This document shows positions 9,196 to 54,085 of a DNA stretch of 64,000 nucleotides, piece after piece. The position numbers and the translations under genes are program-made. The first letter of the stretch is position 1, and every line of letters starts with the position of its first letter. The stretch comes from Piromyces finnis finn. Lineage: Eukaryota > Fungi > Neocallimastigomycota. The notes under the pieces are model-generated. The model worked only from the letters and a program-made list of their open reading frames with translations. It did not search any database and was not told where the DNA came from. The stretch covers positions 744,001-808,000 of the forward strand of contig MCFH01000011.1 of the NCBI GenBank assembly GCA_002104945.1, in the 5' to 3' direction.

Positions 9196-9205
9196 ATAAT
9201 GAAAT

Positions 9206-16334: not shown

Positions 16335-16345
16335 ATAACAATTAC
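16335..16345 (+). promoter_or_regulatory. Self-priming primer-binding site of element A (ATAACAATTAC)
   Basis: Directly follows the 5' LTR; no TGG tRNA PBS; exact complement of GTAATTGTTAT at 16176-16186, 35 nt after TATAAATA (16141). Confidence 0.8.
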
Positions 16346-29260: not shown

Positions 29261-29499
29261 TTATTTTTGGCTAAGGGTTATAGTGTATTGATATTGAATT
29301 TTTTGAAATCATAACCCTTTCACTGAACCAAAATTTAAAAGGTGACTTTTAAAGGTGTTTTAAAATAATTATTGGGATCATTTAATTCTAATTATTATGT
29401 TTAATTAATTATAGATATTATCTGAATTTGTTTTAAATCCAGTTAATATCTTCACAATGACACCACGAATATAAAGACACAGGTCAATAAATTCTTATT

Positions 29500-30270: not shown

Positions 30271-30279
30271 CTTATTATT

Positions 30280-32970: not shown

Positions 32971-35227
32971 TTATTAAAACTTTTAATGTATATTATAAAA
33001 ATATTTTTTTGTTAATAACAACACGAGGAAAAAAAAAAAAAAAGATTATTAACATTTAATATTATATTATCTCATACTATGGTTTAACCAATAATTTTAT
33101 AAATAATTAATTTAATAAAAAAAATTAAAATAAAATAAAACTCAGTATAATGATACGACTCTAACCTGCGACATTCATGTCTAATGGTAATAACATTACT
33201 GATATACTATTATAAATCCTTTTTAATTCATGATACAAGATGCATAAAAAAATATAATATTTTAAATATTTTATGAATAATATCTAATTCTTTTATAAAT
33301 TGTATATCAATTACTAGTGTTAATAATAATTAAACTATATTAGTATAAATTATTATGACGCAAATGTTACACATATATTAGAATAATTAATTACACAAGA
33401 AATGAAAAGATATAAAAATAGTGATAAAGAACAAGATATAAAAAAGAGGAGAAAAGAACTTTTCATTTATAAATAATATTTGATATTTTAGTTTTAAGTA
33501 TAATTTTTATTTTATTTCATTTTATTTTAATAGTTCTAGTTTAAGTTAGTTTTAGGTTAATAATTAAATATTTAATATTTATTATATTTAATTCAGTTTA
33601 AAATATTAATTATAAAAGAAAAGAATATTTATTGTTTATTTTTTTTTATTATTTCAGAAAAGTTATATTTTATTATTAATAGTAATTTTATCGACATATT
33701 TTTATATTTACATTTTATATTCAACTATTTATATTTATTAAACAATAACTTTCGATTCTACTAGTATTGAATGTTATTAATCTTATAATCATCATAATAA
33801 TAATAATTAAATAAAGAAACTTTCAACCAAAATCTATTTAATTATATTATTATAAAATTTATTATTTTTACTATTTGTTTTTATTATTTATTTTTATTAT
33901 TATAAAATAGAAATAAATACAATATTATCTAATATATTATTCAACTATCATTCCCTATTGCTAACGTTCACAATTATATTTTATTTATGGTGTCTTTAAA
34001 ATATATTGCATCATTCATTGTTAAGGAATCAACAAATAATGTTATTCTTGTCATAATTAACAATTATGACCTAATCCATTATTGTTCCTAAATTTATGAT
34101 ACTTTACAATATTCTTATTTGTAAAATAATGTATACATGAAAATCATATTTATACTTATTATAAACTATTTTATTAAACTTAAATTTTATTTTATTAAAC
34201 TTAAAAATTAATTTAGTAATAATAATATATTGAGAAATTATAGTTTAGTTAACTTTTAGTTTAATTTATTAAGTTAATGAATTTTTATTAATTAAATTAT
34301 AAATAATATTTCTGTAAACTAGTAAAATTCTTTAGTTAAATATATTTAAAGTAAACTTTTAATGTATGTTAATCAATTTAATAATATGTATAATTATTTA
34401 TTATAGTAATAATGAGATTGTATTATTCATTTAAAATTAATTCAAATAAGAAAAATAATGTAATTAATTAAATACTAATTCTTTTAATTAACACTACTTA
34501 AATTTCCACAAAAAGTATAAAAGGTGTAAATTAGAAGAGTTAGAAAGTGTGTGTTGTTTAATTTTATTTTTAATATCTTAATATAACAAATTTAATAATA
34601 AAAACAATTTTTCTTATTTTTATTTTAATATTATTTTTGAGTATTAATAAATTTATTAATATTTTCATAAATAAATTAATTTCCTCGAACCGTAACATCA
34701 TTATGTAAGAAATAATAATTATTTCAATCTAAATAATTAATATTTCTTATTAGTTTAATAATTTAGTTAATAATATTTTATACACTTAAATTATTTATTT
34801 AATTTATTTAGTTAAATATAAATTATACATTCAGATACTTTATTTAATTTATTTAGTTAAATATATTTCATATATTTATATAATTTATTTAATTTATTTA
34901 ATTAAATAATAATTTGTTCATTTGATTTTTAAATAATATTTATATACAAGAATCCAATTTTACCCTTTAATTATATATTACTAATTAATTTATAAATGCT
35001 TATAATATATATAACACTGCTGGATCAATCTGGATCGAATGCGCCCAGGTAGCACCAATAAATAATATTTGTTCTGGAAAACTAAGATTTATACAATGTC
35101 CTAGATTTTTAGCCTGAAATTTCTGGCCTTTCTGGTTTTTGTCTGGTTAAAATTTTACCAGAGGTCAAATTTTCCTGGCTAGAAATATTGGCTAAATCCT
35201 TCCAAAATCTAGGAAAAAGTATAAATC

Positions 35228-35718
35228 ATGTGTGGATTACACCCACATATATTTACTGTTAAGAGAAATGGTTCTCGAAACATAGTTCCTATGATTAAAT
35301 ACTTAACAAAAGAAGATAAATGTCCTTTATCAACTTTCGAGTGGGAATCTCTATTAAAATCTGAAGGAAATGAATCTAAAGACCCCGACTGGGATCGTTA
35401 TTTGAACGAACATTTAACTCAAAACCAGGTCATACTACGTATACACGAAGAAGGATTCGCCTCAAGATTTGCTAACCATTTTACTAACTGGATCGCATAC
35501 ATCAAGAAGATGTTTCCTGAAGAGCCCAAACGTGAGTATGTATCTCCTTACACGCAAACTGACTTTAAACTACCAGAAGAACTTGCCATGTGGAAGATAT
35601 GTTACTTTCAAGGTTGGCTTGAAAATCTCCATCGTTTTGGGGAATGGTTAAGACCACAATCCTTGATACTTATAGGTCCAAGTAGAAGTGGTAAAACTGA
35701 ATGGGCCAGGTCCTTAGG
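35228..35718 (+). pseudogene. rep: CRESS Rep, middle segment (RCR motif III and helicase Walker A)
   Basis: GLHPHIF (GRS-like), IKYLTKED (motif III), GPSRSGKTEWARSLG (Walker A); cut by an LTR at 35719. Confidence 0.92.
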
Positions 35719-36075
35719 TGTAAAGATATAATATATATCTTTAGATTATTTAATAATTAATTATTAATTAAATAATAAATTAATATTTAGTAAAATTGAT
35801 TATAAAATTTTTGAATAAATTTTATGGAATAATTTAATAATAAATTATTTTATAATAATTCCGTTAAATTTAAATTAAGATAAATATTTAAATTTAAGGA
35901 ATAAAAGAATTTTAATTAAATTTAAATATTTCAAATATTTTAAATAATTAAAATATTTTTTTAAATACTTTTTATTTAATTTTAGAATAGATTATACTTT
36001 TTTATTTAAATTTAGAATAGTTTAATAATTTTAACTTAGTTTTAAAAATAGATTTATTTATATTTCAATAGGAAA

Positions 36076-37105
36076 TGTCACGAATACTAGTGAAATTACA
36101 ATTTCAAGATCACTTGGAATTGTGAAATCACTTATGAAAATTCAAAATCAACAAATATTTTATTTTCAAATAAATTATAAAATTTTATTAAGAAATATTT
36201 AAAAATTTAGAAAAGGTTAAAATATGACCTTAACCCTTAATAATTTTTATAATAAATAACTTTAACCCTTATCGTTAAAATGGAATAAGAAAAAACACGC
36301 GTATCTCCTCAACGAATGACGATTTTTGAATAAAAATATTTTGGTTATAATTACGTTCGTTAGAAAGCCACGCTCGAGACAAACAACATATCTTAAAATC
36401 AGGTCAATATCTCTGCTGGTTCACGAGATATTCCAATTTAAAGATATTTTGTTAGCAATGATTAATTGTTTATTCAGAGAATGATCACCCCTGATATATC
36501 AAACATAAATCATTCACTCAAAGTATAAAAATTATTGTTTAATTAAATTAAAATTATTTTCCGGAACTAATTAACTTTATTTTATAATAATTATTTCAAT
36601 AACATAATTTATAATCTTTGAACTAGAAGATTATAATTATTAATATTATATTCAATGAATTATATTATAATTAAGAAATAATTAATATTATAAATATATA
36701 AATAATAGTTATTTTTAATAATTAGTAGTAAGTCTTAAGTTTAGCCTTAGTATTATAAAATATATTATGAATATAATCATGTACTAAAAAGTTATTTTAG
36801 TATTAAATGTAAAATTACAAATAGTATAAATAGTTTAGAATAGTTTTATGAATTAAATCTTTGTAAAGATTATTATCTTATTAATACTTAATAAGTATTA
36901 CTATTAAATAATCTTATTATTATATATATTCTTTAAATAAAATAAAAAGGAATTATTTTAACTATAATACATAATTTAATTATTCATTTATAAATCAATT
37001 AAGATTATTTTAATAAAACATTTTTTTTCTAACCTAGTTATCTTTTAACCTTTTATTTAATTTGATATTTTAATATTAAATTATAAGTTTAGTAAAACTT
37101 TTACA
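36076..37105. mobile_element. Solo LTR (~1030 bp)
   Basis: TGTCAC...TTTACA ends; TSD GGAAA (36071-36075, 37106-37110). Confidence 0.85.
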
Positions 37106-37881
37106 GGAAATATATTAAGAATAGTATTGATAATATTAAATTAATTTATAGATGTAACGATGATAAATAATAATTATAAATATATTATACATTTGATATT
37201 AGTAGAAATTTTTATTATAAAATAATTATTAAATAATTTTATATAGTTTATTATAAAAATATAATTTACATAAAATCAAATATTTTATAAATTTATATAT
37301 TTGATTGGGTTAAATTATAAAAATAATTTTTATTATAAAGAATAATAATAATTTTTAGTAGAAAATGAGAAGACTTAGATTATTAATAATAAGTTAAATT
37401 TTAATAATAGTTAATATAATTAATTAGTGAATACATAATAATATTTAAAAAGACAAAAATAAGTTTTTATATAATAAAAATTATTGTTAAAAAGAGCGTA
37501 AGAACAATAAATAAAAGAAAATATAAAAACGAAATTAAACTTGTCTAATTTGTAATTATTGTGTTAATAATAAATAATATTTTATAGAATAAATCTGGTG
37601 TTATTATTCTATATAAATATTATTAAATAATAAAACTATTAAAACTATAAAATAGCTTAAAATAAATTAATAAAACTAGTAGATATTGTTAAAGCTCGTA
37701 CAATAGCTGTCGAGATAAAACAATATAAGATAACAGAAGAAGTAGTTAAAAAGTTGTAATATAACTACCAATCCGTTATCAAGTGGTGGAGAACCTCAGT
37801 CGTCCCGTGGGAAAGCCGAAAATTTAAATAATTCCTATTAATTAGTATATTTAGTATAATTATCTTATTTATTTACTAAAT

Positions 37882-38736
37882 ATGACTGAAAATAAAAACA
37901 ATTTTGAAAGAGCCGCTAGTATGGCTAAAGAAATAAGCCCTCTTGGCAAGAAAGATACTAAGTTCTTCAGATGGAAAATGGAACTTGAAGATATCTTAGA
38001 AGACTTAGCTCTTTCTGAAAAAGAAAAGAAGAGAATTGCTTTGCTTGCTACTACCGGTAACTCAAAGGATCTTTGTAGTGATATTTATTATGAAGATAGA
38101 TCCCTATCTTATAATGAATTTATCAATAAAATATCTAACTTATTTGAGGATGATAAAACCTCTAATAGAAACCTAAATAAGTTAGAAAAAATAAAAGTAA
38201 ACAAAAGCTCTGTTAGATAATTTAACCGTTCTTTTAACGACCTTTTGAAAGAAATTAAAGAAAGGGACAAGCCTTCTGAAGAAAGACTTGTTTTTCTTTA
38301 TACAAAAGCTTTTAATAGGAGAACTTCTATATTAAATTCTCTTATTAACAAACAACCAAAAACTTTAAAGGATGCTATGGTCATTGCTATTAAAGCAGAT
38401 GAGCTTCTATCTGCTTATGAAAGTGATGATGAATATGTACCCAATAAAAGAACTCAAAACAAAAATAATTATTATAAGAGAAAAATAGAAGTTGAAGATA
38501 AAACCTCTTATAATAATAACGAAAATAATAGTAGTACTGATAATGAAAAGACTACTAAAGAAGAAGCTAAAGAATCAGATCTGGATGCTTTGACCAAAAG
38601 CTTTGCCCAGATGAAAATTCATATCTGCCACCGTTGTAACCAGAAAGGACATGATGCCCGCTTCTGCCCAAACGAAATGACCGATGTGAACAAAATCATA
38701 GCTACCCTCCTCAAAACCCAAAACCATTTAAATTAA
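37882..38736 (+). pseudogene. Gag with CCHC knuckle, interrupted by one in-frame TAA (38218-38220)
   Basis: Track ORFs 37882 and 38245 share one frame; CHRCNQKGHDARFC knuckle. Confidence 0.85.
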
Positions 38737-40724
38737 ATGGGGGAAGTTCTCAATCTTCCCCTTCTAACTCCAAAATTGATAATAACCAAACCCACAACAT
38801 CAACAACATTAATGAGCAAATCTATGTTGATGATACACGTGATTTCCATAAAACAAAAAAATTTCCAAATTCTAAAGAAAAATTCTCTAACCCTTTGGTG
38901 GATGATCCAATCAATGAAGATGATAAGGATTACGTTACACGTGATCACGTGACAAATACAGTCGATGATAAGGACATCGAAAACCTTATTTATGCATTCA
39001 AGAGAAAAAGTTCTGAAGAAAGTGATGAAAGTGATGATGAGGATCACGTGACTCAGTCGAAGAAAAAGAAACTTCGAGAAAATCCATTACCAATACACAC
39101 AAAGGCCACTCAGATGAAAGAACAGCAAGAAATTCGTAATGAGAAAAATTCAAATTTTCATACCACTACTTCCCGCCTAGACATCTTAGACCCCTCGGTA
39201 ATTGCAGGCAAGAATATTTCCTCTGCTAAGATGAAAAATAAAGAAACCAGAAATAAAAGAAGAATTGGTCCAGATATACCAAGTAAACAGGACGAATTAG
39301 AAGAAGTTATAGATAGCAAAAAGTCTCCCAAAAGCAACTATTATGACTTCCTACGTTCTATTGTCATGTTGGGCAAAAATAAAGAATATAATATTTTTGA
39401 TGCCCTTAATAATACAAATGCTGGTATCTCTTTTGCACAATTGCTTGCAGTCAGTCCTATCATCAGAAGACTTTGTGCCAAAGGTTTAAAGCTTGATCCA
39501 AATGACGTTCGGAAAATAAACGCCATTCAAAATATGGATCTTAATGATGATGATATTAATTCATTTATTAATATCATTAATGAAAATTATAATAATAAAA
39601 ATAATGAAAACAATGATGATGCTGATAATGACAATGATGATGATATTATCAATATAGCAGATAACGAAATTAATGTCATTAATAAAATCAACATTGCTTC
39701 TGTCATTGGCTCAATTGATAATAACATTGTCCGAGTTTTAGTAGATACTGGTTCTGATGTTAATGTTATTACTAAATCCTTCTTTAATTTAATATCAGCA
39801 AATCATAATATTACACATTTTAAGAGAACTTTCTTTAAATTAGCTAGCAAACAAGTTATTTCAACAAATCAAGCTGTTAATTTAACTCTTAAATTTGGTG
39901 ATTTAAAAATCTATGCATTATTCTGGATTCTAGAAGATGAAGATTCATGTTATGATATTATATTAGGTCGTCAATCTCAAAAGAATCACCGATTATACAT
40001 TGATCCTGATGATGACTCTCTCTACATGAAAACTAATTCATCTCCTATTATGGTTGCTCGTCCCTCAAATTTTAAACAAAATAAAAATAATCTTTCAAAT
40101 ATTTCAATGATTCATTGTTTCAATCCATCAAATATTAATGAATCTCAATTTAATTCATTTAATAATAATATCAAAATTCAAAATTTTAATTCGACTTTTA
40201 ACAATAAAAACAAACTTTTATATTCAATTAAATTTCGACATTTATTCAAATTTAAAAATAAATATTTTTATCCAAAATATCACATTTTTCATTCAAATTT
40301 CAGCAAATTTCCAAAAAGAATTAAAAACGATTCACTTATTAAATTTTCAATTAATAAGTCAAATCTTGTCGGCCATGATGAAGCAGAAAAAACGCCAATT
40401 ATTCACGAAAAATGCCACAAAATCAAGATATATAAAAATAAAAGTAAAATTCTAAAATATAATCATTTGAATATTAATATTAACAGGAAATTAAAATCAA
40501 GAAAAAAGCGAAATAAACAAAATGATATAATCAAAAATTCATCAAATAATTCGTTTAAGAATATATATTTCAGTATAATAAAAAGTGTAAAAGAAAGTAT
40601 TTCAAATTCAATTATTTTCAATCTAAAAGATTATATCAAATCAGTAACTTCAATTTTAAAACGACATTATTTCGACATATTAAAATCAAAATTTCATCTA
40701 TTTTCAAAGTTTAAAGAAAGATAA
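38727..40724 (+). CDS. Protease-containing ORF reached by a -1 frameshift from gag; C-terminal third is low-complexity
   Basis: The frame is open from the slippery heptamer T TTA AAT (38727-38733) into the track ORF at 38895; VLVDTGSDVNVI catalytic motif and YDIILGR. Confidence 0.8.
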   Translation, partial: FKLNGGSSQSSPSNSKIDNNQTHNINNINEQIYVDDTRDFHKTKKFPNSKEKFSNPLVDDPINEDDKDYVTRDHVTNTVDDKDIENLIYAFKRKSSEESDESDDEDHVTQSKKKKLRENPLPIHTKATQMKEQQEIRNEKNSNFHTTTSRLDILDPSVIAGKNISSAKMKNKETRNKRRIGPDIPSKQDELEEVIDSKKSPKSNYYDFLRSIVMLGKNKEYNIFDALNNTNAGISFAQLLAVSPIIRRLCAKGLKLDPNDVRKINAIQNMDLNDDDINSFINIINENYNNKNNENNDDADNDNDDDIINIADNEINVINKINIASVIGSIDNNIVRVLVDTGSDVNVITKSFFNLISANHNITHFKRTFFKLASKQVISTNQAVNLTLKFGDLKIYALFWILEDEDSCYDIILGRQSQKNHRLYIDPDDDSLYMKTNSSPIMVARPSNFKQNKNNLSNISMIHCFNPSNINESQFNSFNNNIKIQNFNSTFNNKNKLLYSIKFRHLFKFKNKYFYPKYHIFHSNFSKFPKRIKNDSLIKFSINKSNLVGHDEAEKTPIIHEKCHKIKIYKNKSKILKYNHLNININRKLKSRKKRNKQNDIIKNSSNNSFKNIYFSIIKSVKESISNSIIFNLKDYIKSVTSILKRHYFDILKSKFHLFSKFKER

Positions 40725-41687
40725 AACCACATTAAACATTTATATACAAATAATACGACAATTACATTACAAAAATATATAAAAACACAAAAATATTTAC
40801 ACTACGACATTTAACAAAATTTCACTTCATTTTTTTTATTTCTCTTTGAAAAAAAAATTTTATTAATAAAAATTTTCAAATTTTTCATCATTTTTTTTAT
40901 AAACCTTATTTTATATTATTTTTATCATATATATATATATATAGAAAAAAAAAAATTTAAATTTTTAAATCTTTAGTATAAAAATATCAAAAACTTATAT
41001 ATTTATTATTATTTATGAATATTTTTATCAGCTACCACTAAGTCGTATCTTAGGGGAGGAAATCTTGATAAATAATAATTATAAATATATTATACATTTG
41101 ATATTAGAAAATTTTATTATAAAATAATTATTAAATAATTTTATATAGTTTATTATAAAAATATAATTTACATAAAATCAAATATTTTATAAATTTATAT
41201 ATTTGATTGGGTTAAATTATAAAAATAATTTTTATTATAAAGAATAATAATAATTTTTAGTAGAAAATGAGAAGACTTAGATTATTAATAATAAGTTAAA
41301 TTTTAATAATAGTTAATATAATTAATTAGTGAATACATAATAATATTTAAAAAGACAAAAATAAGTTTTTATATAATAAAAATTATTGTTAAAAAGAGCG
41401 TAAGAACAATAAATAAAAGAAAATATAAAAACGAAATTAAACTTGTCTAATTTGTAATTATTGTGTTAATAATAAATAATATTTTATAGAATAAATCTGG
41501 TGTTATTATTCTATATAAATATTATTAAATAATAAAACTATTAAAACTATAAAATAGCTTAAAATAAATTAATAAAACTAGTAGATATTGTTAAAGCTCG
41601 TACAATAGCTGTCGAGATAAAACAATATAAGATAACAGAAGAAGTAGTTAAAAAGTTGTAATATAACTACCAATCCGTTATCAACGA

Positions 41688-42314
41688 TGGTACAGAATTT
41701 TATTATAAGTACCTTTTTCTTTATTGTTTGGGACACTACAACAGTTATAAATAACAAATTTATATTCTAGATGAATATTTTTTGATTATATATTATTTTA
41801 TTATTTTGTTTATTATTTTATTATTTTTATTACAAGCTTTATTATTTATAAGTATTATTTATTATTATTTTATATTATTATTTGTTTTAAAAATAGGTAT
41901 AATCTTAGAAAATAAACTAATATTATTATTAATTCCTTCACTAAATCTAACAATAATATTATTTATTCTTCTATTATTATCACCTTATCTTTATTTTATT
42001 TATAATATAACTAATATAAACTAACTAAAAACTAACTAAAACTAAAAACTCTTCTTTTCTTTTATATATATATACGCGTCTTTCTCCTCCTTATATAATT
42101 ATATTTTTATCATCCTTATATTAAATTATAAAAAGTTTATTTTACTTTAATAAATTATTTATAAGTTATTAATTTAATTTAATTTACCATTCTTATTATT
42201 ACTATCGTTATATAAATTTATTAAATAAAAATATTTAAATCCATATATATTATAAGGGTTATTTCATTTACCAAATATATGGATTTATTGCATTTTTCTG
42301 AATGTGGTGTACCA
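41688..42314. mobile_element. Solo LTR with TGGTACA...TGTACCA termini
   Basis: 7-bp inverted ends; ACGA on both sides (41684-41687, 42315-42318). Confidence 0.85.
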
Positions 42315-42857
42315 ACGAATCTATTAGATAATTAATATTGTCTTAATGGTTAGTATTTAAGACATTAATCTGGATCACTCGGGTTCGACTCACACCTTGA
42401 TCCGAAATCTATTTTAGATTATTTATTTAACAATTTAATTTACGACTCATAGAAACTTATAGAACTTATTCGAAAAAGAATAAGTTCGAATATTCGAAAA
42501 ATCAAATATTTTTTGTAATTTTATCACGGGATTCATCTTATGCAATTTTTAATTAATTTAAAGAACAATCTAGAAAGATAATTAAAATTTTTGATTTAGC
42601 CACATCAGATTTAGAAAAAGTATAAATAGAAGTGGTTTGAATCGAAAATTAAAAAAATTGTGTTTTTATTAACTATTAACTTTTAACTTTTAAATTTTAA
42701 AAAAAAAAAAATATTTATTATTAAAAAATAATTTAAATAAAAAATAATTAAAAATTTTAATAAATAAAATTAATTGACTTATTGGGATCAAAATTATTAT
42801 CTATATAAAGTTTATTAATTACCACATTATTAAATACTTATATAGATACGCGTTACA

Positions 42858-42867
42858 ATAAAAACAC
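42858..42867 (+). promoter_or_regulatory. Self-priming primer-binding site of element B (ATAAAAACAC)
   Basis: Directly after the 5' LTR; complement of GTGTTTTTAT at 42660-42669, 39 nt after TATAAATA (42621). Confidence 0.75.
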
Positions 42868-43189
42868 CAGTTGTAACATATTCCCTTTACCTTAATTAAT
42901 TTGTTTATTTTTCCTACCTGTTATAGTGTCTACCCTTGGTTTAAATATCCACTTGTATATTAGTATCTACCTGACTTTTGTACTTTTCTGTTTTGCTACT
43001 TTAGATACTACTTCTGTTTACTCCTTTATTTTTTCTCTAGGCAATAGACACTACCTTTGTATATTGTTTTACAACTCTTTTGGACTCTCTCAGACTCTTT
43101 TGGACTCTTTTGGACTCTTTTGGACTCTCTTGGATATATTATACGATTAAATTGAATTAAAATTAGATATTTTCAATAAAATAAAGAAT

Positions 43190-46100
43190 ATGGATGAAGA
43201 ATTGATGAACCATGCTACGTTGAAGGATGGTTTCGCTGGAAATCGTCGTTTCTTTAAGGGTTTTCTCGCCAAAATAGAATTAATCTTTATGGTCTACCCA
43301 GAGCGCTACGCGGATGATGAAGCAAAAATCGTCTATATTATTTCAAGACTATATGGTGAAGCCTTGAATTGGGCTGCATCATTAATTCACAACCATGACG
43401 AATGCCTATTAAATTATGACTCATTTGTTGCAAAGCTTAAATCTGTGTTTGGCAACAACGACTCAACATTTGTGGCTAATCAAAAGCTTCGAACTATAAA
43501 GCAAAGGAAAATCGGAGAAATTCAAAAATATATTCTTGAATTTAACCGATACTCTGATGACTCCTCTTGGAACGAAAGTGCAAAAATGGACGCCTTCTTA
43601 GCTGGACTACAAGATCAAGTCGCCAATAGAATTTTAGAAATGTTTCCCGGTCCACAAACGCTACTAAATTTACAAGTTATAGCATCAAGAATCGATTCTA
43701 GAATCGATACTAATAGAAGATTTTTCAACAACAATCACTCTAATAGCACCAATCAAAACCGAAGAACTGAAGCAAATAGAAAACCTTTCACTTCGAGAAA
43801 TAAGAAAACTTACGGACCGCTTACCTCAGAAGAAAAGGCTAGAAGAATTAAGGAGAATCTCTGTTTATATTGTGGTTCTCCAGATCACAAGTTAAACAAC
43901 TGTCCAAAAAGAAGTAAAAATGAAAAAACAGCTGGGACTCATATTTCTAATTCTATGCCTGAAAAGAAACCTAGAATAAGATTCTCCGATAATCCCCATT
44001 TGAAACAACCAGTTTTTGAGTTCCAACTCAATACTTCCGACGTCTCCGTTAACACTAAACTACTAATTGATTCAGGATCCCAACTTAACCTAATAGATGT
44101 GGTCTTTGCAGAAGAAAACAACATTCCTTTTGATAAATCCGTCTCTCTCGACAAAATCTCTGGTATTGGTGGGGAACAACAAGTCTTAGGTAAATCCATC
44201 CCAATTTCAATTAAATACAAAAACCACCAATGTAAAACTATATTTTATATTGTAGACCTCCCGGGATATTGTGGTATCTTAGGTGCTGAATGGTTACATC
44301 AGCACAACCCTATTATTAACTTCGTTGAAAAAGAATTATCTTTTAATTCAAATTTCTGTTTGTCACATTGCTCTGTCATTCCAAATGTTGCCCCTACTTA
44401 TGTTATTTCTTCTATTTCTAATGATTCCAAACCTTCTTGTAGCACTTCAACCAATTCTTATATCCATGATTCTGTAACAAATCTTCCAAAAAGTCAAGAT
44501 TCCACCACTAACACTTCTAGTAATCAAGAAGTTATTCTACCCGCTGAACTTCAAGCCTTTGAAGATGTATTTAATGAAAAAGCCGCTGAACAATTGCCGC
44601 CACATAGGCAATACGATTGTGAAATCCGTCTTAAGCCGGACTCCAAACTTTTCTATGGACCAATTTATCCTTTAACGGATAAAGAATCAATGGTATTGAA
44701 GGAATACATTGATGAAAATTTGCGAAGAGGTTTCATCAGACCTTCGAAGTCTCCGGCTGGTGCCCCAGTGCTTTTTGTCCCGAAGAAAAATGGTGAACTA
44801 CGTCTATGTCAAGATTATAGGAAATTAAACGAAATCACAATCCGTGATTCATACCCTTTACCATTAATTAATGACATGTTGGAACATCTAGGTAAAAGCA
44901 ACATCTTCTCCAAACTTGATTTAAGATCCGCTTATAATCTTGTGAGGATCAAAGAAGGTGATGAATTCAAAACTGCTTTTACTTGCAAATATGGACACTT
45001 TGAATATACTGTAATGCCGTTTGGTTTGAAAAACGCACCTGCAGTATTTCAACATTTCATTAATGATGTGCTTGAGGGAATCTTGGGAATATTTGTCTTT
45101 AGTTATATTGATGACTTAATAATTTTCTCGGAAAATTTTAAAACCCATGTAATCCAGGTTAAAGAAGTACTTAAAAGACTTAGAAAAGCGGGACTTTACG
45201 CAAAACTTGAAAAATGTGAGTTCTTTGTCCCATTTATCGATTTCTTAGGTCATCGTATATCTTCTGAAGGTATTTTAATGGATCCAAAGAAAATTGCATC
45301 TATCTTGGAATGGCCAACTCCTAAAAGCGTTAAAGAGGTTCAAGCGTTTCTTGGGTTAGCTAATTATTATAGAAGATTCATTGCCGGTTTTGCTGAGATC
45401 GCACAACCACTGAATGCGTTACTTAAGAAGGATGTTAAATTCTGCTTCTCTCATCAGTGTGAAAATTCTTTTAGTTTAATCAAATCCAAATTTGCTTCTT
45501 CCCCTGTTCTTGCATACCCGAATCGTGATATACCTTTCATAGTTGAAACGGATGCAAGTAATTTCGCTATAGGAGCAATCCTTTCACAAACGAATCCAAA
45601 AGACAAGTCGGTTCATCCAGTGGCATTTTTCTCTAGATCGCTTAGTTCTTCTGAAAGGAACTATCCGATCTACGATAAAGAACTTTTAGCAATTGTAGCT
45701 GCTTTAGAAACTTGGCGACATCTACTCAAAGGAACTACTCAGCCTTTCAAGATTTTCTCGGATCATAGAAATTTGCTCTACCAGAAGAAACCCGAAAAAA
45801 TGACTCAAAGATTAGTTCGTTGGTCTCTGTTCCTTGCCGAGTTAAACTTTATCATCGTTTATCGGTCGGGTTCTGCTAATGGTAAACCTGACGCTTTATC
45901 TAGAAGACCAGATTACTTAGAAAATTTTAAGTATAACAATGACATTCCAAATTCCGTCCTTAGACCCGAAAACTTTTGTGCCATGGTTCTGGATAACAAT
46001 CCCCTTATGGATAAAATCATTTCAAATAGCAAAGATGATAAATTTTACTTTGAAGTATGCAAATATTTAGAAACTCAAATTCCCCCAGTCCCTCATTCGC

Positions 46101-47425
46101 AAATCGAAAACTTTAAAATTCAAGATGGTGTATTATTATTCAATAATAGGATCTATGTCCCCCAAGATTGTCGTTTGGAAGTTCTTAAAATTTGCCATGA
46201 CTCACCCTCCGCTGGACACTTCGGATTAAAGAAAACTACTTCCCTTATTGTTCGTGACTTTTGGTGGCCTTATCTCTCAGTCGATGTCAAAGAATATGTT
46301 AGGTCTTGCGAAATATGTTGCCGATCAAAGGATTCTCGACACAAACCCTATGGATTTCTCTCCCCTTTGGAAATTGCTGAACGTCCTTGGTCTTCCTTAT
46401 CTATGGACTTTATTACGGATCTCCCACCTTCCCAAAAGTATACTTGCATTCTTGTAGTCACCGATAGATTAACTAAATTATGCCACTTCATTCCTTTTGA
46501 GAACATCCCTTCTGCCTCCGATACTGCTGATGCTTTCATGATCAACGTTTTTCGTCTCCATGGATTACCAAATGAAATTCTTTCGGATAGAGGTACTCAA
46601 TTTACCTCTAAATTCTGGAATTCAATTTGCAAATCTTTTGATATAAACTTAAAATTTTCTTCTTCCTACCATCACCAAACAAACGGGCTGACGGAGAGGG
46701 TAAACTCCGTTGTAGAACAATACCTAAGGTGTTACTCAAATTATAAAGGCTCTAACTGGTACAAGTTCTTACATCTTGCTGAATTTAGTTACAATAATGC
46801 CGTTCAAGAATCTACCAAAACTTCACCATTTTTTGCTAACTATGGCTATAATCCAAAACATTCTCCAATTTTACCAAGTCGTACCGAGATACCAACTGCG
46901 GATGAATTCACAAGAAATTTCAAAGAAATAATTAAAACTCTTAAAGATAACTTGAAGAAATCCATTAATCAACAAGAAAAATTCGCAAACAAACACAGAA
47001 GTAAAGCCCCTGAACTCAAGGTAAATGATAAAGTATGGATCAACAGTTCTTTAATAATGCGTAATGGTAATAAGAAGTTAAAACCTAGAAAACTTGGTCC
47101 GTACAAAATAATTGAAAAAATTTCTCCAGTTTCTTTCAAATTGGAGTTACCAAAAGAAATTCGCATTCATCCAGTCATCCACGTTTCAGAATTGGAACCC
47201 TACCATGAAGACAAGTTCAATAGAAAGCAACCGCCACCTCCGCCGGTTATTGTGGATAATAAGGAAGAATTTGAAGTCGAAGAGATATTGGATAAAAGAA
47301 GATATTATGGTAAAGTCCAATATCTAATTAAATGGAAAGGATACCCAATATCTGAAGCATCTTGGGAGCCAGAAACAAATTTGAATTGTCCAGAACTACT
47401 TAAGGAATTCAACAAAAAGAAATGA
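43190..47425 (+). CDS. Gag-Pol polyprotein with C-terminal chromodomain (element B)
   Basis: [14 protein letters not shown]; LIDSGS; YIDDLII; [15 protein letters not shown]; integrase HHCC and DDE motifs; [39 protein letters not shown] chromodomain. Confidence 0.97.
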
Positions 47426-47563
47426 TTTCAACAGAAACTTTATTTTTAATTTATTTTTAATTTATTTTTAATTTTAATTTAAAAAAAAAAAAAAAAATAA
47501 CTTCTTTAAATTTTCTTAAATTTTAGATTTTCTTTAAGCATGTATTTAATATTAAATATATAA

Positions 47564-47606
<43 letters not shown>

Positions 47607-48680
47607 ATTTTATTGTAATTCAATTAGTATAGTTTAATTATATAGTAATTATATAGCTTAAAAAAATTATTATTGTAATAAAACATAAAATGAATCCAAA
47701 GATTCGTCTGGTATCCGAATCCTGGAGGAAGACCATGTAACGAATCTATTAGATAATTAATATTGTCTTAATGGTTAGTATTTAAGACATTAATCTGGAT
47801 CACTCGGGTTCGACTCACACCTTGATCCGAAATCTATTTTAGATTATTTATTTAACAATTTAATTTACGACTCATAGAAACTTATAGAACTTATTCGAAA
47901 AAGAATAAGTTCGAATATTCGAAAAATCAAATATTTTTTGTAATTTTATCACGGGATTCATCTTATGCAATTTTTAATTAATTTAAAGAACAATCTAGAA
48001 AGATAATTAAAATTTTTGATTTAGCCACATCAGATTTAGAAAAAGTATAAATAGAAGTGGTTTGAATCGAAAATTAAAAAAATTGTGTTTTTATTAACTA
48101 TTAACTTTTAACTTTTAAATTTTAAAAAAAAAAAAATATTTATTATTAAAAAATAATTTAAATAAAAAATAATTAAAAATTTTAATAAATAAAATTAATT
48201 GACTTATTGGGATCAAAATTATTATCTATATAAAGTTTATTAATTACCACATTATTAAATACTTATATAGATACGCGTTACAATAGAAAATACATGGGCT
48301 TTATTCAATTTTGAGTTTACTCAAATTGAATTAAAAGTATAATGAATTAGTTTTAGTTTAGTTTTGTTATTTTATTATTTAATTAGATTAGTGTTGTTTA
48401 TTTTATATTAAATATATGTTTATTTAAATAGAATAATATATTAGAATATAATTATGAAAAAATATAAATACATGTAATTTTTGTTTATTAAATCGATGTA
48501 ATTGTTATTTTCAATTTTTTAATTATTAACTATTATATAGTTAATAATATTTTTTAAGAGTTTTAAATAAAATGATTTTTAAAATAAAAATTTAATGTTT
48601 TATTTTTTATTTTTGTGTTAATAAAAATTGTTTTGTTTTAAGTATAAAATCTGTTTTAAATTTTATACTTTAACATTAGG

Positions 48681-48993
48681 TAAGTACATGTATTTCAACA
48701 ACTTATTTAATTTAGACGATTGGAATGAGGATGCAGACTACATCATTTTAGATGATTTTAACAGTGATATAACCAAGTTTTTACCATTTTGGAAGTGTTT
48801 CTTTGGTGGTCAAAAACAGTTTACTCTCACTGATAAATACAGAGGTAAGAAAACAGTTCATTGGGGAAAACCAATGATTTGGTTATCCAACGAAGACTTA
48901 TACAAAAATCTTAATATTGAACACTTAAATTTCTTAAAAAAAAATTGTACTTGTATCATTTTAGAAAATAAATTATTAAATAAAGTTTATTAA
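48681..48993 (+). pseudogene. rep: CRESS Rep, C-terminal helicase segment (Walker B, motif C)
   Basis: YIILDDF (Walker B), FFGGQKQFTLTDKYRGKK, WGKPMIWLSN (motif C); resumes in frame after the TTAGG TSD. Confidence 0.92.
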
Positions 48994-49175
48994 AATTTAA
49001 ATATATTACATTGTATTGTGTTGTATACATTTTGTGTTAAATAAAAAAAAATCTGTTCCTACTACTCCCCCAGAGCCGTCCGTCCAGAGTAGGAAAACAA
49101 TCCTCTTAAAACCACTTGGCTATGGATAAGTAGGAGGGTGTGACTCATCACGTGATCATCATTAGATATAAACAT

Positions 49176-49748
49176 TGATATAAGTTTCTTTTATGTTGTA
49201 GTAATTTAATATTAGTTTATTTATAATTTATTATATTAGGTGAAAAATATTTTATTACTATTAACTTCTCTCTTATTAATAATTTCACTTATAATATTTT
49301 CTTATTAATTATTAAAGCTCTTCTCTTTCTAATTATTAATTATTTTTACATGAATATTTTTATATTATAAAATTTCTATAATATAATTGAATATCAATTA
49401 TATAATGTAATGTATTCATAATATATGAATAATAATTAAATAGGATATAGTATAATATATTTTACATTTTATATGAAATATTACTATATAAGGAAAGGTA
49501 ATGTAATACAAATAAGTATTACAATAAAATTAATACTAATATAATATTAATATTTAAGAATATAATGAAATATGTACATGAATTCTATAACTAATATATA
49601 AATAATGTATTATAATATATATCAATTATTATATTATTATTATGAAATATTATATATAAATTTTTAAAGATGAAATTGAATATTTTAAATAATAAAAATT
49701 ATTTTAAATATTGGCTAATATGTAGCTAGACATATTAATTTCATATCA
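49176..49748. other. AT-rich block in the viral 3' intergenic region with TGATAT...ATATCA ends; possible later insertion
   Basis: Host-like AT content between two GC-richer viral segments; 6-bp inverted ends; no clean TSD. Confidence 0.35.
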
Positions 49749-49818
49749 AACGGCCAGGGTCTAGAGCCTGCGGCTCACAGGGATCAAACACGTTAACTTA
49801 GTTGTATGTCACGTGTTC

Positions 49819-51057
49819 TTATGTAGAGCTTGCATTGACTTCTACTAAATCAGAGAATATAGTTGGTTTAGTCCATGATGCTACTAAATCATCTTCAGAT
49901 GTTACCGATTGATAGTTACATGGAAGATCCCATATATTTACCTTTTTGATACATTTAACTAATAATTTACCAGGTAATGTACCTACAATTGTACCATCAC
50001 TACGTTGATTGTCTTCAGTTGCAACTTGACCTTCAAAACCGAATAAAGTTGCTTGTGTAATACCACCAATACCCATTTTATTATTAGTATGTCTAGTTTC
50101 TCTAGGGTATAATAAACTAGCATTGGTTATCTTCTTTTTTGGATTGTATATAACCACGTGATGGTGTGATGATCCGGGTGGTAAAATGATTTTTTTCATA
50201 CCTTTAACTTTCCAAATCGTGTTAAATAAATGATAGTCCGTTGGTTTCATACCAACAGTATTCCAATATGTACCCATTTCGAGTGTAGGGTCTGCAACTT
50301 GCCATGTTGGGGCAGAACCTCCATCGGTCATAGATTTTGAACCCTTTTGCATACAAGCTTCAGGGGCACTATTACCATCATTATTAGCATCAGAATATGC
50401 TATTTGATGTGGTGTATCACATTTACAAATTAAATCGTAAATGTATACAGTCATTAAATAATTAGTTGGGTTATACAATTCGTAATGGAATGTACATTTA
50501 CCAACGTAAATACCAGCTGATGGGGAATTTCCCACGGCTTTATTATTGGTTACTGTAGCAGAAACCCCTTCTATACTCTGTGTCGGTAAGATTTTACGAC
50601 CTTGTAAATAAGTACATAAATTATTGAACTTTAAATGACAAACACTATACCAAATAGTTTTTGAGGCTGCACCAGCACCCATCCAAGAAAAACCAAATCT
50701 GTTTATATATTTGTTTTTAGTAGGGTTTGTTTTAAACAATTTGCGTAAAAATCGTTGTTCACGTGGTGTTCTACGTACTATCATACGTGTTGTAGTATGG
50801 GTTGTACCAGCAGCATTTCCTTTAACTGATTCGAATTGTCTATTGCCAATCTTACGATTTCTTCGTACAATCCTATCTCTTGCTCTACGTCCTAAATTTT
50901 GAGCCAATTGTCTTGCTTTATTACGCACCATCCTATTCCTCATTGCTCTTCGTAATACGTTACGTGCTACTACCGGTACTTTCCATAACGCTTGTCTTCC
51001 TATTTGTTGAATAGGATAATTTCTCGCTCTTCGTACAACTTGTTGTCGTTGGGGCAT
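49819..51057 (-). CDS. cap: CRESS-DNA virus capsid protein (412 aa)
   Basis: Arg-rich N-terminus (RRARN..RRAMRNRMVRNKAR..RRNRK); intact ORF divergent from the rep start across the origin, an ambisense layout. Confidence 0.85.
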   Translation of the reverse strand: MPQRQQVVRRARNYPIQQIGRQALWKVPVVARNVLRRAMRNRMVRNKARQLAQNLGRRARDRIVRRNRKIGNRQFESVKGNAAGTTHTTTRMIVRRTPREQRFLRKLFKTNPTKNKYINRFGFSWMGAGAASKTIWYSVCHLKFNNLCTYLQGRKILPTQSIEGVSATVTNNKAVGNSPSAGIYVGKCTFHYELYNPTNYLMTVYIYDLICKCDTPHQIAYSDANNDGNSAPEACMQKGSKSMTDGGSAPTWQVADPTLEMGTYWNTVGMKPTDYHLFNTIWKVKGMKKIILPPGSSHHHVVIYNPKKKITNASLLYPRETRHTNNKMGIGGITQATLFGFEGQVATEDNQRSDGTIVGTLPGKLLVKCIKKVNIWDLPCNYQSVTSEDDLVASWTKPTIFSDLVEVNASST

Positions 51058-51169
51058 TTTGATTGGTCAATCAAGTACATTCGTACATTATATGGATATT
51101 TATAGTAATTCCGCAAATTAAAGTTTAATTTAAAAAATTAATATAAATAGAGACTGGCAGGCAGGCATG

Positions 51170-51198
51170 GAGCGCTATATAATATTAAATTAGCGCTC
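51170..51198 (-). promoter_or_regulatory. Rolling-circle origin stem-loop with nonanucleotide TAATATTAT on the capsid strand
   Basis: Stem GAGCGCTA/TAGCGCTC with a 13-nt loop; + strand ATAATATTA (51179-51187) is TAATATTAT on the minus strand; outer GGCATG/CATGCC extension. Confidence 0.9.
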
Positions 51199-51201
51199 AT
51201 C

Positions 51202-51432
51202 ATGCCAGCTTTCGCATTAAGAAAACGTGACTTTGGATTAACTTATGCAGACTCACGTGATGTTACCAAAGAAGAATTATACTCTTGTTTACAACTATTA
51301 GTTATTGCTGACGCCCACGTAGATAAGTTAATGTTAGCCGAAGAAGTGGGTCACGTGATTGGAAAACGTCACTTCCATGCTTATATTAGGTTCACTAAAA
51401 GAGTAACAGTAAACGAGTTCAATTTTGTCATG
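51202..51432 (+). pseudogene. rep: CRESS Rep, N-terminal segment (RCR motifs I and II)
   Basis: DFGLTY (motif I), RHFHAYI (motif II); homology ends at TCATGT, whose ATG is in frame with the ATG at 35228. Confidence 0.9.
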
Positions 51433-54085
51433 TTATACCTAAACACGGATTTACTTTAGGAAATTGGTATTTTAAGGTTTTTCCGATTATTATTACAAAT
51501 AATTGGTTTTACTTAAAATTTACACGATGACCAATATGATTAGAATATTGGTTGAAAATTTGTTTAGGTTTTTCTTCTAGTCTTTTCCTAAACATTTTAT
51601 TTGTTAAGATTAGAACTCATTTATTTAACCTTATTTTTTAATAAAAATATAAATAAACACTCTTAAAATTCTTTAGAATTCAAGAGTTATTATTATAAGA
51701 AAAATTAATTATAATAAATAACAAATAATTTTATTTAATAAAAATTAATTAATAAAAAATCATATTATTAATAAAACATAATTCTTATACATTTTATTCT
51801 CATCCCTCTTCCCATTTGTGTTTTTGTTATTTATTATAAATTCTTATAATAAACTCGTTAAGTACTAGTTTTTTTAATTTCATATTTAATTTTTTATTAT
51901 TTCTTTCCATATACATAATTTAATATTAAATTTTAATATTGAGTTATCGACAAGTAATTGTATTATACTATTTAATATAAATATTATAATAAAATTACTA
52001 CACATTACATGGTCCTCCTGTAAAATATTGTATTAATAGAATAATGTTGTAACAACGCGAGAGACTAAGGTTAACACAATACTAATTAACTATTTTTTGT
52101 ATTAATAGTATATTTTATTAATAATTTGATTATTTAATATTATTAATACAAATTAACCTTAATACTAATTCTAAAGACTAAATTTACATGAATTTTATAA
52201 ATTATTTATATTTACTATTTATAAATATTCTTATTTAATAATTATGAATAAACATTATTCATATTGATTGGTAACTTCAATTATTTAAATAAAAAAGAAG
52301 AAATAGAAATAGACAAATATTATGGATTAAATATAGCGATTGCTATATTTAATTCATAATATATAGAACCCGGAGTCGAACACATGACAAGTAGGTCAGC
52401 ATCCAACAACCTGATGGCGAAGCCAGCTTAGAGAACCCCGAAATATATGATACGCTACTCACATAAAAACATAATAAAAACTAACTGAATAAACACGACT
52501 TAACCCATAGTAACTTATAATAAAAATAAACGATAATAACCCTTAAAAATGAATGAATAATAATTTTATGAAAATATAACCCTTTCTTAAATAAATAATA
52601 TTCTCTTTATTATATAATAAATTATGAGTAAAAAAAGACATAATAGTAATAATAATAAAATAAATTATTAAATAATATAAAACGACTTAATCCAATAATG
52701 TAATAAAATAATAAAATAATAATAAATAAATAAAAATGAATAAAAAAACTAAAAATAAAATAGTATACATCAAATTATTAATTCTAGTGTTTTGTCCAAG
52801 TGTTCTTTAGAAATTCTTTTAAATTTATAAATTAATAAATAACTAATTGAGTAATTATTACTAAAATGATAAACTTAAAACCTGGAAATAGAATAATAAT
52901 AACAATTCCAAAGATAAAATACAGAACTCTTTTATGTTTCTGTATAAAATGAGTGTTTATAATAATTGATTAATACTTTTAATATTTTAATTTTGTTAAA
53001 TTTTTATTTTAATTTTATTTTAATTTTAAATTTTAATTATTTTATTCAAGGTATTATACATTTAATGATAGTCAATGATAATTTATAATAATTTTTCTAA
53101 ATTTAAACATTTTGAAGTAATAAGAAAATCAAATAAGTAATATTCTATAATATTTTATAATACTAAGACATAATTTTAATTTATTCTTTTAATTTTAATA
53201 AATAATAACAATAGCAATAATAATATTTAATAGTTAAAAATAATAATACCAAATGAAAATGTATAAAAGGAAGATAAAATTCTTCTTTATAAAAAGGGGA
53301 CAATAAATAGAGAATAAAAAGACAATAAACAGATAATAAATAAATTATAAAATATAATAAAGATTTAATTTAAAACATAATAAGAGTTTATTTTCGAGTT
53401 TTGAGTGATTTATTTGTTAATTATAAAACATATTTTTATTTTATTTTAAATTTATTGTTTCATCATAATAATATAGAATTTACTATTTATTAAAAACATT
53501 ATATTATTCAAAAATATATCGGTCAACGCATCATATAATGATACAATAGAGAATATTATCTTAATTCTATATTTTACTATAGAAAGTGATAATATTTTAT
53601 CTAAAAAAAATAAGTAAGTGAAATAAATGATTTTTATACTTGTTCATTTGCAAGTATTAGTTAATTTTTAAAAATATAAAGTTTATTATATTTAATTATA
53701 AAATTATAATATTATTTAATAACTCTCGTATTATTAAATAATTAAGCATTAATACATCTTGTATGTATCATAGAAGTTATATAAAAAAATATTGTTTTAT
53801 TAAAATAAATATTTAATTTTTCTCTCTTGGATAATTAGTAACCATTTATTAAATTTAATATAATATATATAATTTTGACGGATTATTAGGAACATCTTTT
53901 AAAAAGAACATTTTCTATTACTAGTTATACAAAATTATTATTTTAAAGTATAATTATAAACAAATATAAACTATTTAATTTAAAAATAAATAAACAATTA
54001 AATAAACAAAAGTTTACATTTATAATTTTTAATTTAATAATTTTATACATGTTAAATATTTTAATTTTTATCTGTATTTTAATTA

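Follow-up and report, generated by a model that had tools for sequence, protein, structure and literature searches.

The window analyzed here, a 64-kb stretch of the Piromyces finnis genome, contains a unit-length, circularly permuted CRESS genome in which the middle and end of rep are followed by an intergenic element, a capsid gene, an origin, and the start of rep. The viral element is bounded by two + strand copies of the 6-bp direct repeat TCATGT, at 35226-35231 on the left and at 51428-51433 on the right. The identity between the two ends is exactly six letters and no longer, and this hexamer is found 17 times on the + strand of the window (2.7e-4 per place). The ATG of each copy is in frame, and the Met codon at either end corresponds to the same Rep residue, number 80, in an alignment to the relative P0110. 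The only reading frames of at least 90 amino acids within the viral element are those of rep and cap.

The rep gene is found in three pieces, all on the + strand. The N-terminal piece (51202-51433) carries motifs I and II and matches Gemini_AL1 with an E-value of 0.0019, which is under the curated cutoff. The middle piece (35228-35718) contains the motif III region, the central domain, and Walker A, and matches Gemini_AL1_M with an E-value of 5.6e-7, which is over the cutoff. The C-terminal piece (48681-48993) contains Walker B, motif C, and the stop codon; the Walker motifs and motif C were identified by eye. The pieces are 231, 488, and 313 nt in length and each is free of stop codons in its own frame. 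All three were matched by 16 of 18 natural Reps, and two pieces were matched by the remaining two. The pieces align to residues 7-84, 80-246, and 244-344 of P0110. Since this protein is tiled without a gap, nothing was lost at either break, and the comparison that the first-pass annotation had proposed, for gaps in sequence at the TCATGT join, found none missing. The middle piece shares 51-59% identity with the top-scoring metagenomic Reps and 80% with a second Rep from P. finnis (P0109), and the C-terminal piece is 73-88% identical to 16 close Reps. A profile search with the Rep returned named CRESS Reps, and no solved structure was matched by sequence. The Rep has the two-domain organization, an HUH endonuclease and a superfamily 3 helicase, that is characteristic of the Cressdnaviricota.

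Joining the two ends had been expected to restore an intact Rep. The open frames are indeed restored, but an open frame is not equivalent to an intact protein: comparison with 28 close relatives shows differences at 6 of the 139 conserved columns, at four of these with a residue found in no relative, and a tail four residues longer than in 27 of the 28. In a leave-one-out control, however, at least four private departures were found in 8 of the 28 relatives, and thus the departures of the window Rep are within the natural range. A reading of these differences as decay, and as proof of a dead enzyme, was rejected on the same control. Under a strict version of the control, 17 of the 28 free relatives have at least one private departure at near-invariant columns.

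Two further observations concern the position of the break. In the right-hand repeat, the first letter belongs to a codon that breaks with a column on which 27 of the 28 relatives agree, and the other five letters fit. Because this first letter clashes with a near-invariant residue, the 6-bp repeat is likely to be partly host-derived. The break itself runs through a conserved motif between motifs II and III in 16 aligned relatives, which we take to be the GRS motif. The GRS motif is described as essential in a geminivirus (PMC5399927, citing Nash 2011). The second P. finnis Rep is unbroken across the same position, which argues against a fixed site of attachment there.

The capsid gene (49819-51057, - strand) is open and encodes a protein of 412 amino acids with an Arg-rich N-terminal arm. 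The structural model (pLDDT 80) adopts a single jelly-roll fold that is near the capsids of STNV, nanoviruses, and geminiviruses; the best matches among solved structures were STNV (Z 10.4, rmsd 3.4, 170 aligned), FBNSV (9.5), AYVV (9.2), and MSV (8.9). CRESS capsids were matched at E-values of 1e-27 to 1e-14, and the Atlas score is 0.96. No Pfam domain was matched in the window capsid or in three relatives. As modeled, the protein is a single jelly-roll viral capsid, the second Cressdnaviricota character found here. Many of its relatives are on contigs of 2.7-2.9 kb.

The origin hairpin (51164-51206, - strand) presents the nonamer TAATATTAT (51187-51179) on the capsid strand in a 13-nt loop, and its outer stem overlaps the rep start codon. 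The folding energy is -15.9 kcal/mol (z -3.8), a value equaled in 1 of 200 shuffles. A stem-loop origin with a nonamer on a circular genome, also expected of the Cressdnaviricota, is therefore present, with circularity deduced from the permuted gene order and from comparison with a free virus, L008, described below. The small intergenic region contains a conserved noncoding element (49051-49123, - strand) that is 77% identical over 75 nt to L008. It gave neither a tRNA call by ARAGORN nor a match in Rfam, and the sole other match to its motif, L011, was discarded as a phage tRNA-Cys. In the consensus fold of the two sequences, none of the 19 pairs is compensatory. The L008 element folds better than its shuffles (z -2.4 and -4.5); that of the window folds no better on the - strand (z -0.2) and has z -1.7 on the + strand.

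The middle and C-terminal pieces of rep are separated by a nested LTR stack on the + strand (35719-48675) with TG...CA ends, flanked by the target duplication TTAGG at 35714-35718 and 48676-48680. The outer element A is a solo LTR, now in pieces at 35719-36075, about 37111-37147, and 48288-48675, that match other solo copies within the window at 96-99% identity. Within A are a TG...CA solo-LTR-like insert, element B (36076-37105, target duplication GGAAA), and a Ty3/chromovirus retrotransposon, element C (37153-48282, + strand, target duplication ATAGA). The open reading frame of C (43151-47425) encodes gag, RT, RNase H, integrase, and a chromodomain, and its 551-bp LTRs differ by one mismatch. 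Element D, an LTR element with matches to gag and protease only, is inserted 8 bp into the 5' LTR of C (37161-41683, + strand, 4-bp duplication ACGA), and its LTRs of ~620 bp differ by one mismatch and one gap (1 letter in 619). A further solo-LTR-like insertion, element E, with 7-bp inverted ends, is found at the insertion site of D (41688-42314, 4-bp duplication ACGA). The window as a whole is dense in LINE and LTR elements. The displaced rep pieces with their lengths and open frames, the TCATGT ends, the TTAGG-flanked stack, the 412-aa capsid frame, and the stem-loop had all been described in the first-pass annotation and are as it described them.

The genome size given there must be revised. 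The small intergenic region also contains an AT-rich block of 573 bp with TG...CA ends (49176-49748, approximate ends) and a GC content of 0.12, versus 0.35 and 0.51 on either side. A clean target duplication was not seen. A contig of another copy from the same organism departs from the window at 49749 and by eye resembles the sequence to the left of the block, which is likely a later insertion, either a solo LTR or something similar. The sum of 3,240 nt (~3.24 kb) is correct with this block included; because the block looks like a further insertion, the viral unit is taken as ~2,667 nt (~2.67 kb).

The right junction was examined in assembled contigs. Record 8 of run X1 corresponds to 51038-51468 with one difference, crosses the junction unbroken, and extends 35 host letters past it; this contig was separately assembled and has a single-copy-like depth. 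No joint back into rep, branch, or circular form was found in the X1 contigs. Run X1 is possibly the sample behind the window itself, contigs of this kind drop rare forms, and the support from this short-read contig covers the right junction only. A contig from run X6 (51196-51444) has no differences, but it ends 11 letters beyond the junction and was not counted as bridging it. A single short contig from run X2 (50527-50847) has three differences, and run X3 has no contig matching the element. Runs X2 and X6 are guessed to be RNA, and their contigs carry no information on transcription. Repeats border both sides of the element, and a host multicopy repeat of high contig depth (51455-51775), with 68-77% matches elsewhere in the window, is found beside the right junction. 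The left flank gave no match upstream of three other, diverged copies of this repeat within the window (scores 46-51; shuffle maxima 63-69), and so host DNA may have been deleted or rearranged at the insertion site. The break is ~240 nt away from the nonamer, and thus the circle was not opened at the nick site. These results support the reading that a gut-fungus chromosome carries a single, whole circular CRESS genome with one opening, which is inside rep.

The closest free relative is a cattle blood-associated gemycircularvirus (capsid AUX80745; L008, 2,734 nt). Like the element, this circle has two opposed genes and an unspliced rep that begins beside an origin hairpin with the same nonamer, and its cap, nonamer, rep, and intergenic element have the same order and orientation. 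The capsids are 53% identical, and the Reps only ~37%. A single DNA match between the two, from the intergenic region into rep, has an E-value of 3e-17. Tracing of Rep and Cap to unrelated viruses would have undermined the original annotation; the shared arrangement in L008 argues that both belong to one virus. L008 may originate from the cattle plasma survey of PMC5769433, although that survey gives lengths of 2,192 and 2,926 nt, neither of which fits 2,734 nt.

A search for other copies in gut fungi had been proposed, and such copies were found. The window capsid clusters at 90% with three P. finnis proteins on other contigs, so that the genome has at least three capsid gene models besides that of the window, together with the second rep. 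One of these capsid genes and a rep gene have adjacent locus numbers, and two capsid copies share one contig. An empty site, also to be looked for, was not found among the repeat copies of the window. Twenty of the 32 differences between capsid copies are synonymous, whereas 22-27% would be so in the absence of selection (p 6e-4 against 0.33); for the divergent copy alone the count is 10 of 20 (p 0.09), which is not significant for selection. The predominance of synonymous differences, as between circulating viruses, was counted in favor of the copies being separate, recent captures, as was the near-identity of the LTR pairs of C and D, which marks the LTR elements nested in rep as young. Capsid relatives in Anaeromyces and Pecoramyces gene models are distant, at only 25-30% identity.

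A quick, midpoint-rooted tree of 101 Reps, built without geminivirus or geplanavirus references, grouped the window Rep, the second P. finnis Rep, and a Rep fragment from Anaeromyces robustus with 27 unnamed metagenomic Reps in a clade of 30 rows (SH-aLRT 100). Selection by length (255-400 aa kept) left out 23 of 121 candidate rows, and the Anaeromyces fragment was added back. The Rep of L008 is in the sister clade, and the resulting 39-row clade (97) is apart from a 24-row clade (97) that contains the named genomoviruses, Tortoise genomovirus 14 and Molossus gemykibivirus 1; one row labeled "Genomoviridae sp." falls elsewhere again. Viral contigs searched with the middle rep piece alone gave no match. 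Searched with alignments, the same contigs gave seven distant Rep loci and two capsid loci; among these, L008 alone belongs to the lineage of the window. Metagenome contigs gave one distant capsid match (25%), and two scans of prokaryote genome contigs found no relatives. The gut-fungal Rep and capsid relatives support a fungus-linked lineage.

The Rep and origin had been called genomovirus/geminivirus-like, and this likeness stands, whereas membership in the Genomoviridae is not supported. SsHADV-1 and its relatives share with the element a fungal host, a gemini-type Rep, a TAATATTAT origin, and one rep with one cp, and the nonamer conforms to the TAWWDWRN pattern given for the family in PMC5399927, with TAATATTAT itself in SsHADV-1. 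However, genomoviruses have genomes of ~2-2.4 kb, compared with ~2.67 kb for the element and 2,734 nt for L008, and their capsids are smaller. The 412-aa capsid appears to be of another sequence family, judged by the names among its 104 matches, where no ICTV genomovirus name occurs other than the label of L008. The isolated fungal hosts of genomoviruses listed in PMC13499601 are ascomycetes. The Geminiviridae and the endogenous rep arrays of plants share the Rep domains PF00799 and PF08283. The element differs from geminiviruses in its nonamer, which ends in T (versus TRAKATTRC in PMC5399927), in a much longer capsid, in having no accessory frame of at least 90 amino acids in place of movement and accessory genes, and in having a fungal rather than a plant host.

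We consider it probable that a single circular Rep-encoding virus genome, opened inside rep, was captured recently from a virus infecting the fungus by one microhomology-guided repair event, without any integration step of the virus. At a chromosomal break, five to six letters common to host and virus would have guided the joining of a double-stranded replicative circle present in the nucleus. The split of rep on arrival would have left a copy unable to start its own replication, and LTR elements would then have accumulated in rep and likely also in the small intergenic region. Related virus variants would have reached this genome on several occasions, apparently sharing a capsid while differing in rep and origin. 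The first letter of the repeat counts against this proposal. After a simple single crossover, the right-hand repeat should begin with the viral letter, and the mismatch found there means that a crossover requires heteroduplex repair, later mutation, or target duplication.

The same letter is an argument for an alternative that we regard as unlikely, in which the repeat is a host target-site duplication. Here the enzyme of a retroelement or transposon would have made a staggered cut, which was filled in after joining of a viral molecule lacking ~6 nt, aided by the five-of-six match. The abundance of LINE and LTR elements in the window is consistent with this alternative. However, the LTR duplications here are 4-5 bp, a host-only repeat would rarely match the viral frame at five of six letters, and private departures at near-invariant columns are also found in free relatives.

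The first-pass annotation had proposed a whole-virus provirus of a fungus-infecting lineage. The whole virus and the fungal link hold; a provirus in the sense of a latent stage is not supported. It is very unlikely that integration in rep was a regulated off-state from which recombination between the repeats freed circles until the LTR elements arrived. The unit length, the open capsid and origin, and the compatible frames across the repeat are in accord with such a state, but there is no recombinase gene among the reading frames of the element or of L008, the second P. finnis Rep is continuous at the break, the X1 contigs contain no joint or branch at the junction, and the break is in the presumed GRS segment. 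A 6-bp repeat is a very poor substrate for recombination. For this reason, and because the first-letter codon departs from 27 of 28 relatives, the regeneration of a working circle by TCATGT recombination was overstated. With an opening ~240 nt from the origin, a rep split on arrival, and no circle seen, the element is the fossil of an infection, a recent endogenous element and not a latent provirus.

It is equally improbable that a longer-than-unit concatemer was integrated and then trimmed or that the element is a duplicate of one elsewhere in the chromosomes. The several capsid copies, two of them on one contig, would fit such an origin, but independent trimming would rarely leave both ends at the same codon, and the mostly synonymous differences resemble those among circulating viruses. 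An assembly artefact, in which a free viral circle from the culture was joined to host contigs, is the least credible, since the flanking repeats and a read check of the right junction only are outweighed by host LTR elements with clean target duplications inside rep and by the separate, single-copy-like contig across that junction.

Whole-genome CRESS insertions are known from Entamoeba and Giardia (Naryaviridae, Nenyaviridae, and Vilyaviridae; PMC7493932), and Rep plus CP insertions are reported for oomycetes (PMC13499601). In these cases also, the host of metagenomic viruses is named from a complete viral genome that a microbial or gut eukaryote carries in its chromosome, and rep-cap module swapping is a further point in common. 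The host phylum and virus lineage are different, and the break described here is exact, within rep, and away from the origin, in contrast to the Rep-mediated integration suggested in PMC7493932. In line with the first-pass annotation, by which most described CRESS endogenous elements are rep fragments, capsid-bearing insertions are rare (3 capsid vs 302 Rep genes; PMC3198968). The class of mechanism is already known, and the discovery is one of host and lineage, with no novel type of system involved. Because the break point is exact, it also provides a rare clean record of a Rep-encoding circle entering a chromosome without using its origin.

The value of the element is that it names a host for an unclassified geminivirus/genomovirus-related clade. 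For most of the CRESS viruses in gut and blood metagenomes no host is known; a complete, fresh insertion provides one for a large unnamed clade, and the relatives in two further genera of gut fungi add to this assignment. We found no literature report linking this lineage to a gut-fungus host, and the one earlier record found of a gut-fungal DNA virus consists of a transcript contig of 307 nt in Pecoramyces (PMC9501391). Gut fungi are likely the hosts of a large unnamed group otherwise obtained from metagenomes and cattle samples. With somewhat less assurance than for the mode of capture, we favor the view that an undescribed family-level ssDNA group (>100 capsids, ~30 close metagenomic Reps, and the cattle blood-associated gemycircularvirus) consists of circulating viruses of the Neocallimastigomycota that swap rep and capsid modules, have their own intergenic element, and repeatedly enter chromosomes. 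It counts against this host call that the nearest named virus is from cattle material. A plain reading of the "cattle blood" virus is that it was a passenger that came from gut fungi, as its likely source paper had already suggested might be the case (PMC5769433). Gut fungi drive the digestion of fiber in herbivores, and very little is known of the DNA viruses that infect them; if this view is correct, no earlier DNA virus lineage has been linked to the Neocallimastigomycota through whole genomes.

The element is indeed a whole CRESS virus genome, as the first-pass annotation had claimed from the sequence, and it became endogenous recently; it is of unit length, was opened once inside rep, and retains an intact origin. 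The rep gene lies in three stop-free pieces (35228-35718, 48681-48993, and 51202-51432); all three were matched by 16 of 18 natural Reps searched against the window, and two pieces by the remaining two. The pieces match residues 7-84, 80-246, and 244-344 of the natural Rep P0110 and therefore tile the entire protein, with both element ends meeting at residue 80, so that the proposed rejoining of an opened circle into a full Rep is borne out. Whether this Rep is intact is less simple. The pieces depart from relatives at 6 of 139 conserved columns (four departures being private), and the tail exceeds 27 of 28 relatives by 4 residues, but as many private departures are present in 8 of 28 natural relatives used as a control, and they are thus no proof for or against a working enzyme.

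The rep gene is interrupted by the nested LTR stack previously described as TTAGG-flanked, and its elements carry clean target duplications: TTAGG for solo LTR A, GGAAA for solo B, ATAGA for chromovirus C, and ACGA for D and E. These insertions came after the viral one. LTR pairs differ at 1/551 and 1/619 aligned letters, and therefore the LTR elements are young. Within 37153-42318, D and solo E, which are different elements, share one site 8 bp inside the 5' LTR of C, with ACGA present in three copies around them; an insertion preference for LTR ends is possible.

Of 2,364 candidates compared with the 412-aa capsid, 104 proved homologous; these are 46-68% identical, the P. finnis copy excepted, and lie mostly on contigs of 2-3 kb. 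Its structure model (pLDDT 80) resembles CRESS capsids and, among solved structures, those of STNV, nanoviruses, and geminiviruses (Z 10.4-8.9); when solved structures were searched by plain Foldseek, the matches were only weak ones of a general jelly-roll kind. In the origin hairpin, which folds with z -3.8, TAATATTAT lies on the strand of the capsid gene. The expected genome size of ~3.24 kb was not upheld. The stop-to-stop region between rep and capsid is 825 nt in the window versus 316 nt in L008, a free circular genome of 2,734 nt labelled Cattle blood-associated gemycircularvirus. We infer that a 573-bp block (49176-49748, GC 0.12) with TG...CA ends is an insertion, and the viral unit without it would be about 2,667 nt. 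No clean target duplication was found around this block; the contig of another copy departs from the window at 49749, and its letters there, compared by eye, resemble the block's left neighbor (~24/27).

Rep and capsid were found to derive from one virus, not two. L008 has the same nonamer adjoining the rep start and the same gene orientation, and a single DNA match (E 3e-17) runs from the small intergenic region into rep; its capsid and Rep are 53% and 37% identical to the window clade, respectively. A non-coding element of 75 nt, conserved in the small intergenic region of viruses with 37%-identical Reps, is 77% identical between window 49051-49123 (minus strand) and L008 1590-1664. It opens with a 13-letter run that we take to resemble a tRNA D-arm or polymerase III A-box and is followed in the window by a T-run. 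Its candidate roles are second-strand origin, terminator, and small RNA gene.

A quick tree of 101 Reps was built with the breaks in the window row masked and the careful search unfinished; 23 of 121 candidates were dropped by length and one was added back. The window pairs with a second P. finnis Rep from another locus (support 100). Both fall in a 30-row clade (100), of which an Anaeromyces robustus Rep fragment is a further member; L008 belongs to the 9-row sister clade, and the two clades together make up 39 rows (97). In this tree, which has neither geminivirus nor geplanavirus references, named genomoviruses form a clade of their own, apart from this one. One of the ten close Rep clusters looked up is named (Anaeromyces), and UniRef labels two fungal proteins as CRESS Rep-domain proteins. 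In the capsid tree, three P. finnis capsids group together (100), surrounded by unnamed metagenomic capsids. When 1.84 billion representatives were searched with a capsid profile, 118 matched; of ten looked up, two are Pecoramyces and Anaeromyces gene models (25-30% identical) and eight are nameless. The unnamed relatives probably derive from herbivore guts. A sister type of capsid, distant from the window's and bearing large insertions (P0314, Pecoramyces, 900 aa, with at least two capsid-like stretches; P0318, Anaeromyces, 419 aa; P0312 and P0315, metagenomic, ~630 aa), occurs on contigs of 2.8-3.3 kb and in two other gut-fungal genomes. P0074, a capsid of the window's family, is filed under Methanobrevibacter on a 2,660-nt contig that is likely viral and mis-binned into a metagenome-assembled genome.

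The window capsid shares a 90% cluster with three named P. finnis proteins in a public protein collection, which marks the host as an anaerobic gut fungus, likely P. finnis. Capsid models elsewhere in this fungus are 99% (284/287), 97% (204/211), and 95% (143/150) identical to it. Six sequencing runs with one organism code match part of the stretch, and four were aligned to 49745-51560. The right junction is continuous in a 431-nt contig of run X1 (51038-51468, one difference, depth 207) that extends 35 letters beyond it; X1 is possibly the same sample as the window's source, and depth is a rough guide. Longer X1 capsid contigs have depths of ~410-580, and no contig joints were found among 8 of 15 X1 records listed. 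The X1 contigs fork ~10 nt upstream of the capsid start (51038-51067), with a depth of ~553 on the capsid versus 207 on the origin and rep start. Because of this fork, and because another P. finnis locus has a 97%-identical capsid adjoining a Rep of 80% identity, the data suggest virus variants with a common capsid but a different origin and rep. Of 33 capsid-copy differences listed, one belongs only to run X2; of the 32 listed for X1, 20 are synonymous, whereas 22-27% would be expected in the absence of selection (p 6e-4, tested against 0.33). The fractions are 10/12 for the nearest copies and 10/20 for the divergent copy (p 0.09). Given this synonymous excess, the copies likely diverged as viruses and then entered separately and recently.

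The window is 22.5% GC, and LINE and Ty3-type elements are abundant across it. They include a LINE-like element (1932-6385) with overlapping-frame ORFs for endonuclease and reverse transcriptase, and an apparently intact chromovirus (15608-22338) with a single 1,617-aa gag-pol ORF (16779-21632), a chromodomain, and 675-bp LTRs differing at two places. A 775-nt perfect inverted repeat (9203-9977 / 29499-30273) is spaced by 19.5 kb, and a 724-nt LTR pair is perfectly inverted (54989-55712 / 57990-58713). Among 16 frames scanned, the sole non-mobile-element candidate is a 369-aa frame (61270-62379) that resembles BspA-type leucine-rich repeats weakly, its match (E 1e-5) falling under the cut-off.

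The element ends in a direct-repeat hexamer, TCATGT (35226-35231 and 51428-51433), whose identity stops at exactly six letters. The main rival account holds that this is a target duplication made by a host mobile-element enzyme. Because the right-hand copy begins in a codon that departs from a column kept in 27 of 28 close relatives (15 of 16 in a separate alignment), the hexamer looks, from its sequence, like host DNA matching the virus at five of six letters, or like a later change there. In the mechanism we propose, a double-stranded circle would have been joined to a chromosomal break by repair, guided by a match of 5-6 letters. Rep is described as cutting inside the nonamer (PMC5399927), while the element was opened ~240 nt away, which argues that entry was not Rep-mediated. 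The second P. finnis Rep runs unbroken through the break position, which is therefore no fixed attachment site. An empty integration site was not found among the repeat copies compared within the window.

Zhao, Lavington and Duffy reportedly screened eukaryote genomes for CRESS Reps in 2021, and their screen may include these Reps. Literature searches found no published report linking these viruses to a gut-fungal host. Endogenous CRESS genes were tallied as 302 Rep versus 3 capsid (PMC3198968). Whole CRESS genomes are described in Entamoeba and Giardia, with integration considered Rep-mediated (PMC7493932), and Rep+CP insertions in oomycetes (PMC13499601); the isolated fungal ssDNA viruses listed in the latter come from ascomycetes. 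Genomovirus features and size range were taken from PMC5399927. For the CRESS genomes of cattle plasma, the host was left undecided, with gut fungi or protozoa mentioned as possible (PMC5769433). The passages and one supplement file consulted from PMC9615429 make no mention of Piromyces or Neocallimastigomycota, and a single 307-nt Pecoramyces transcript contig is described with a 36-aa rep match (PMC10224137, PMC9501391). This type of event is thus already known; the host phylum is new, and the virus lineage is unclassified.
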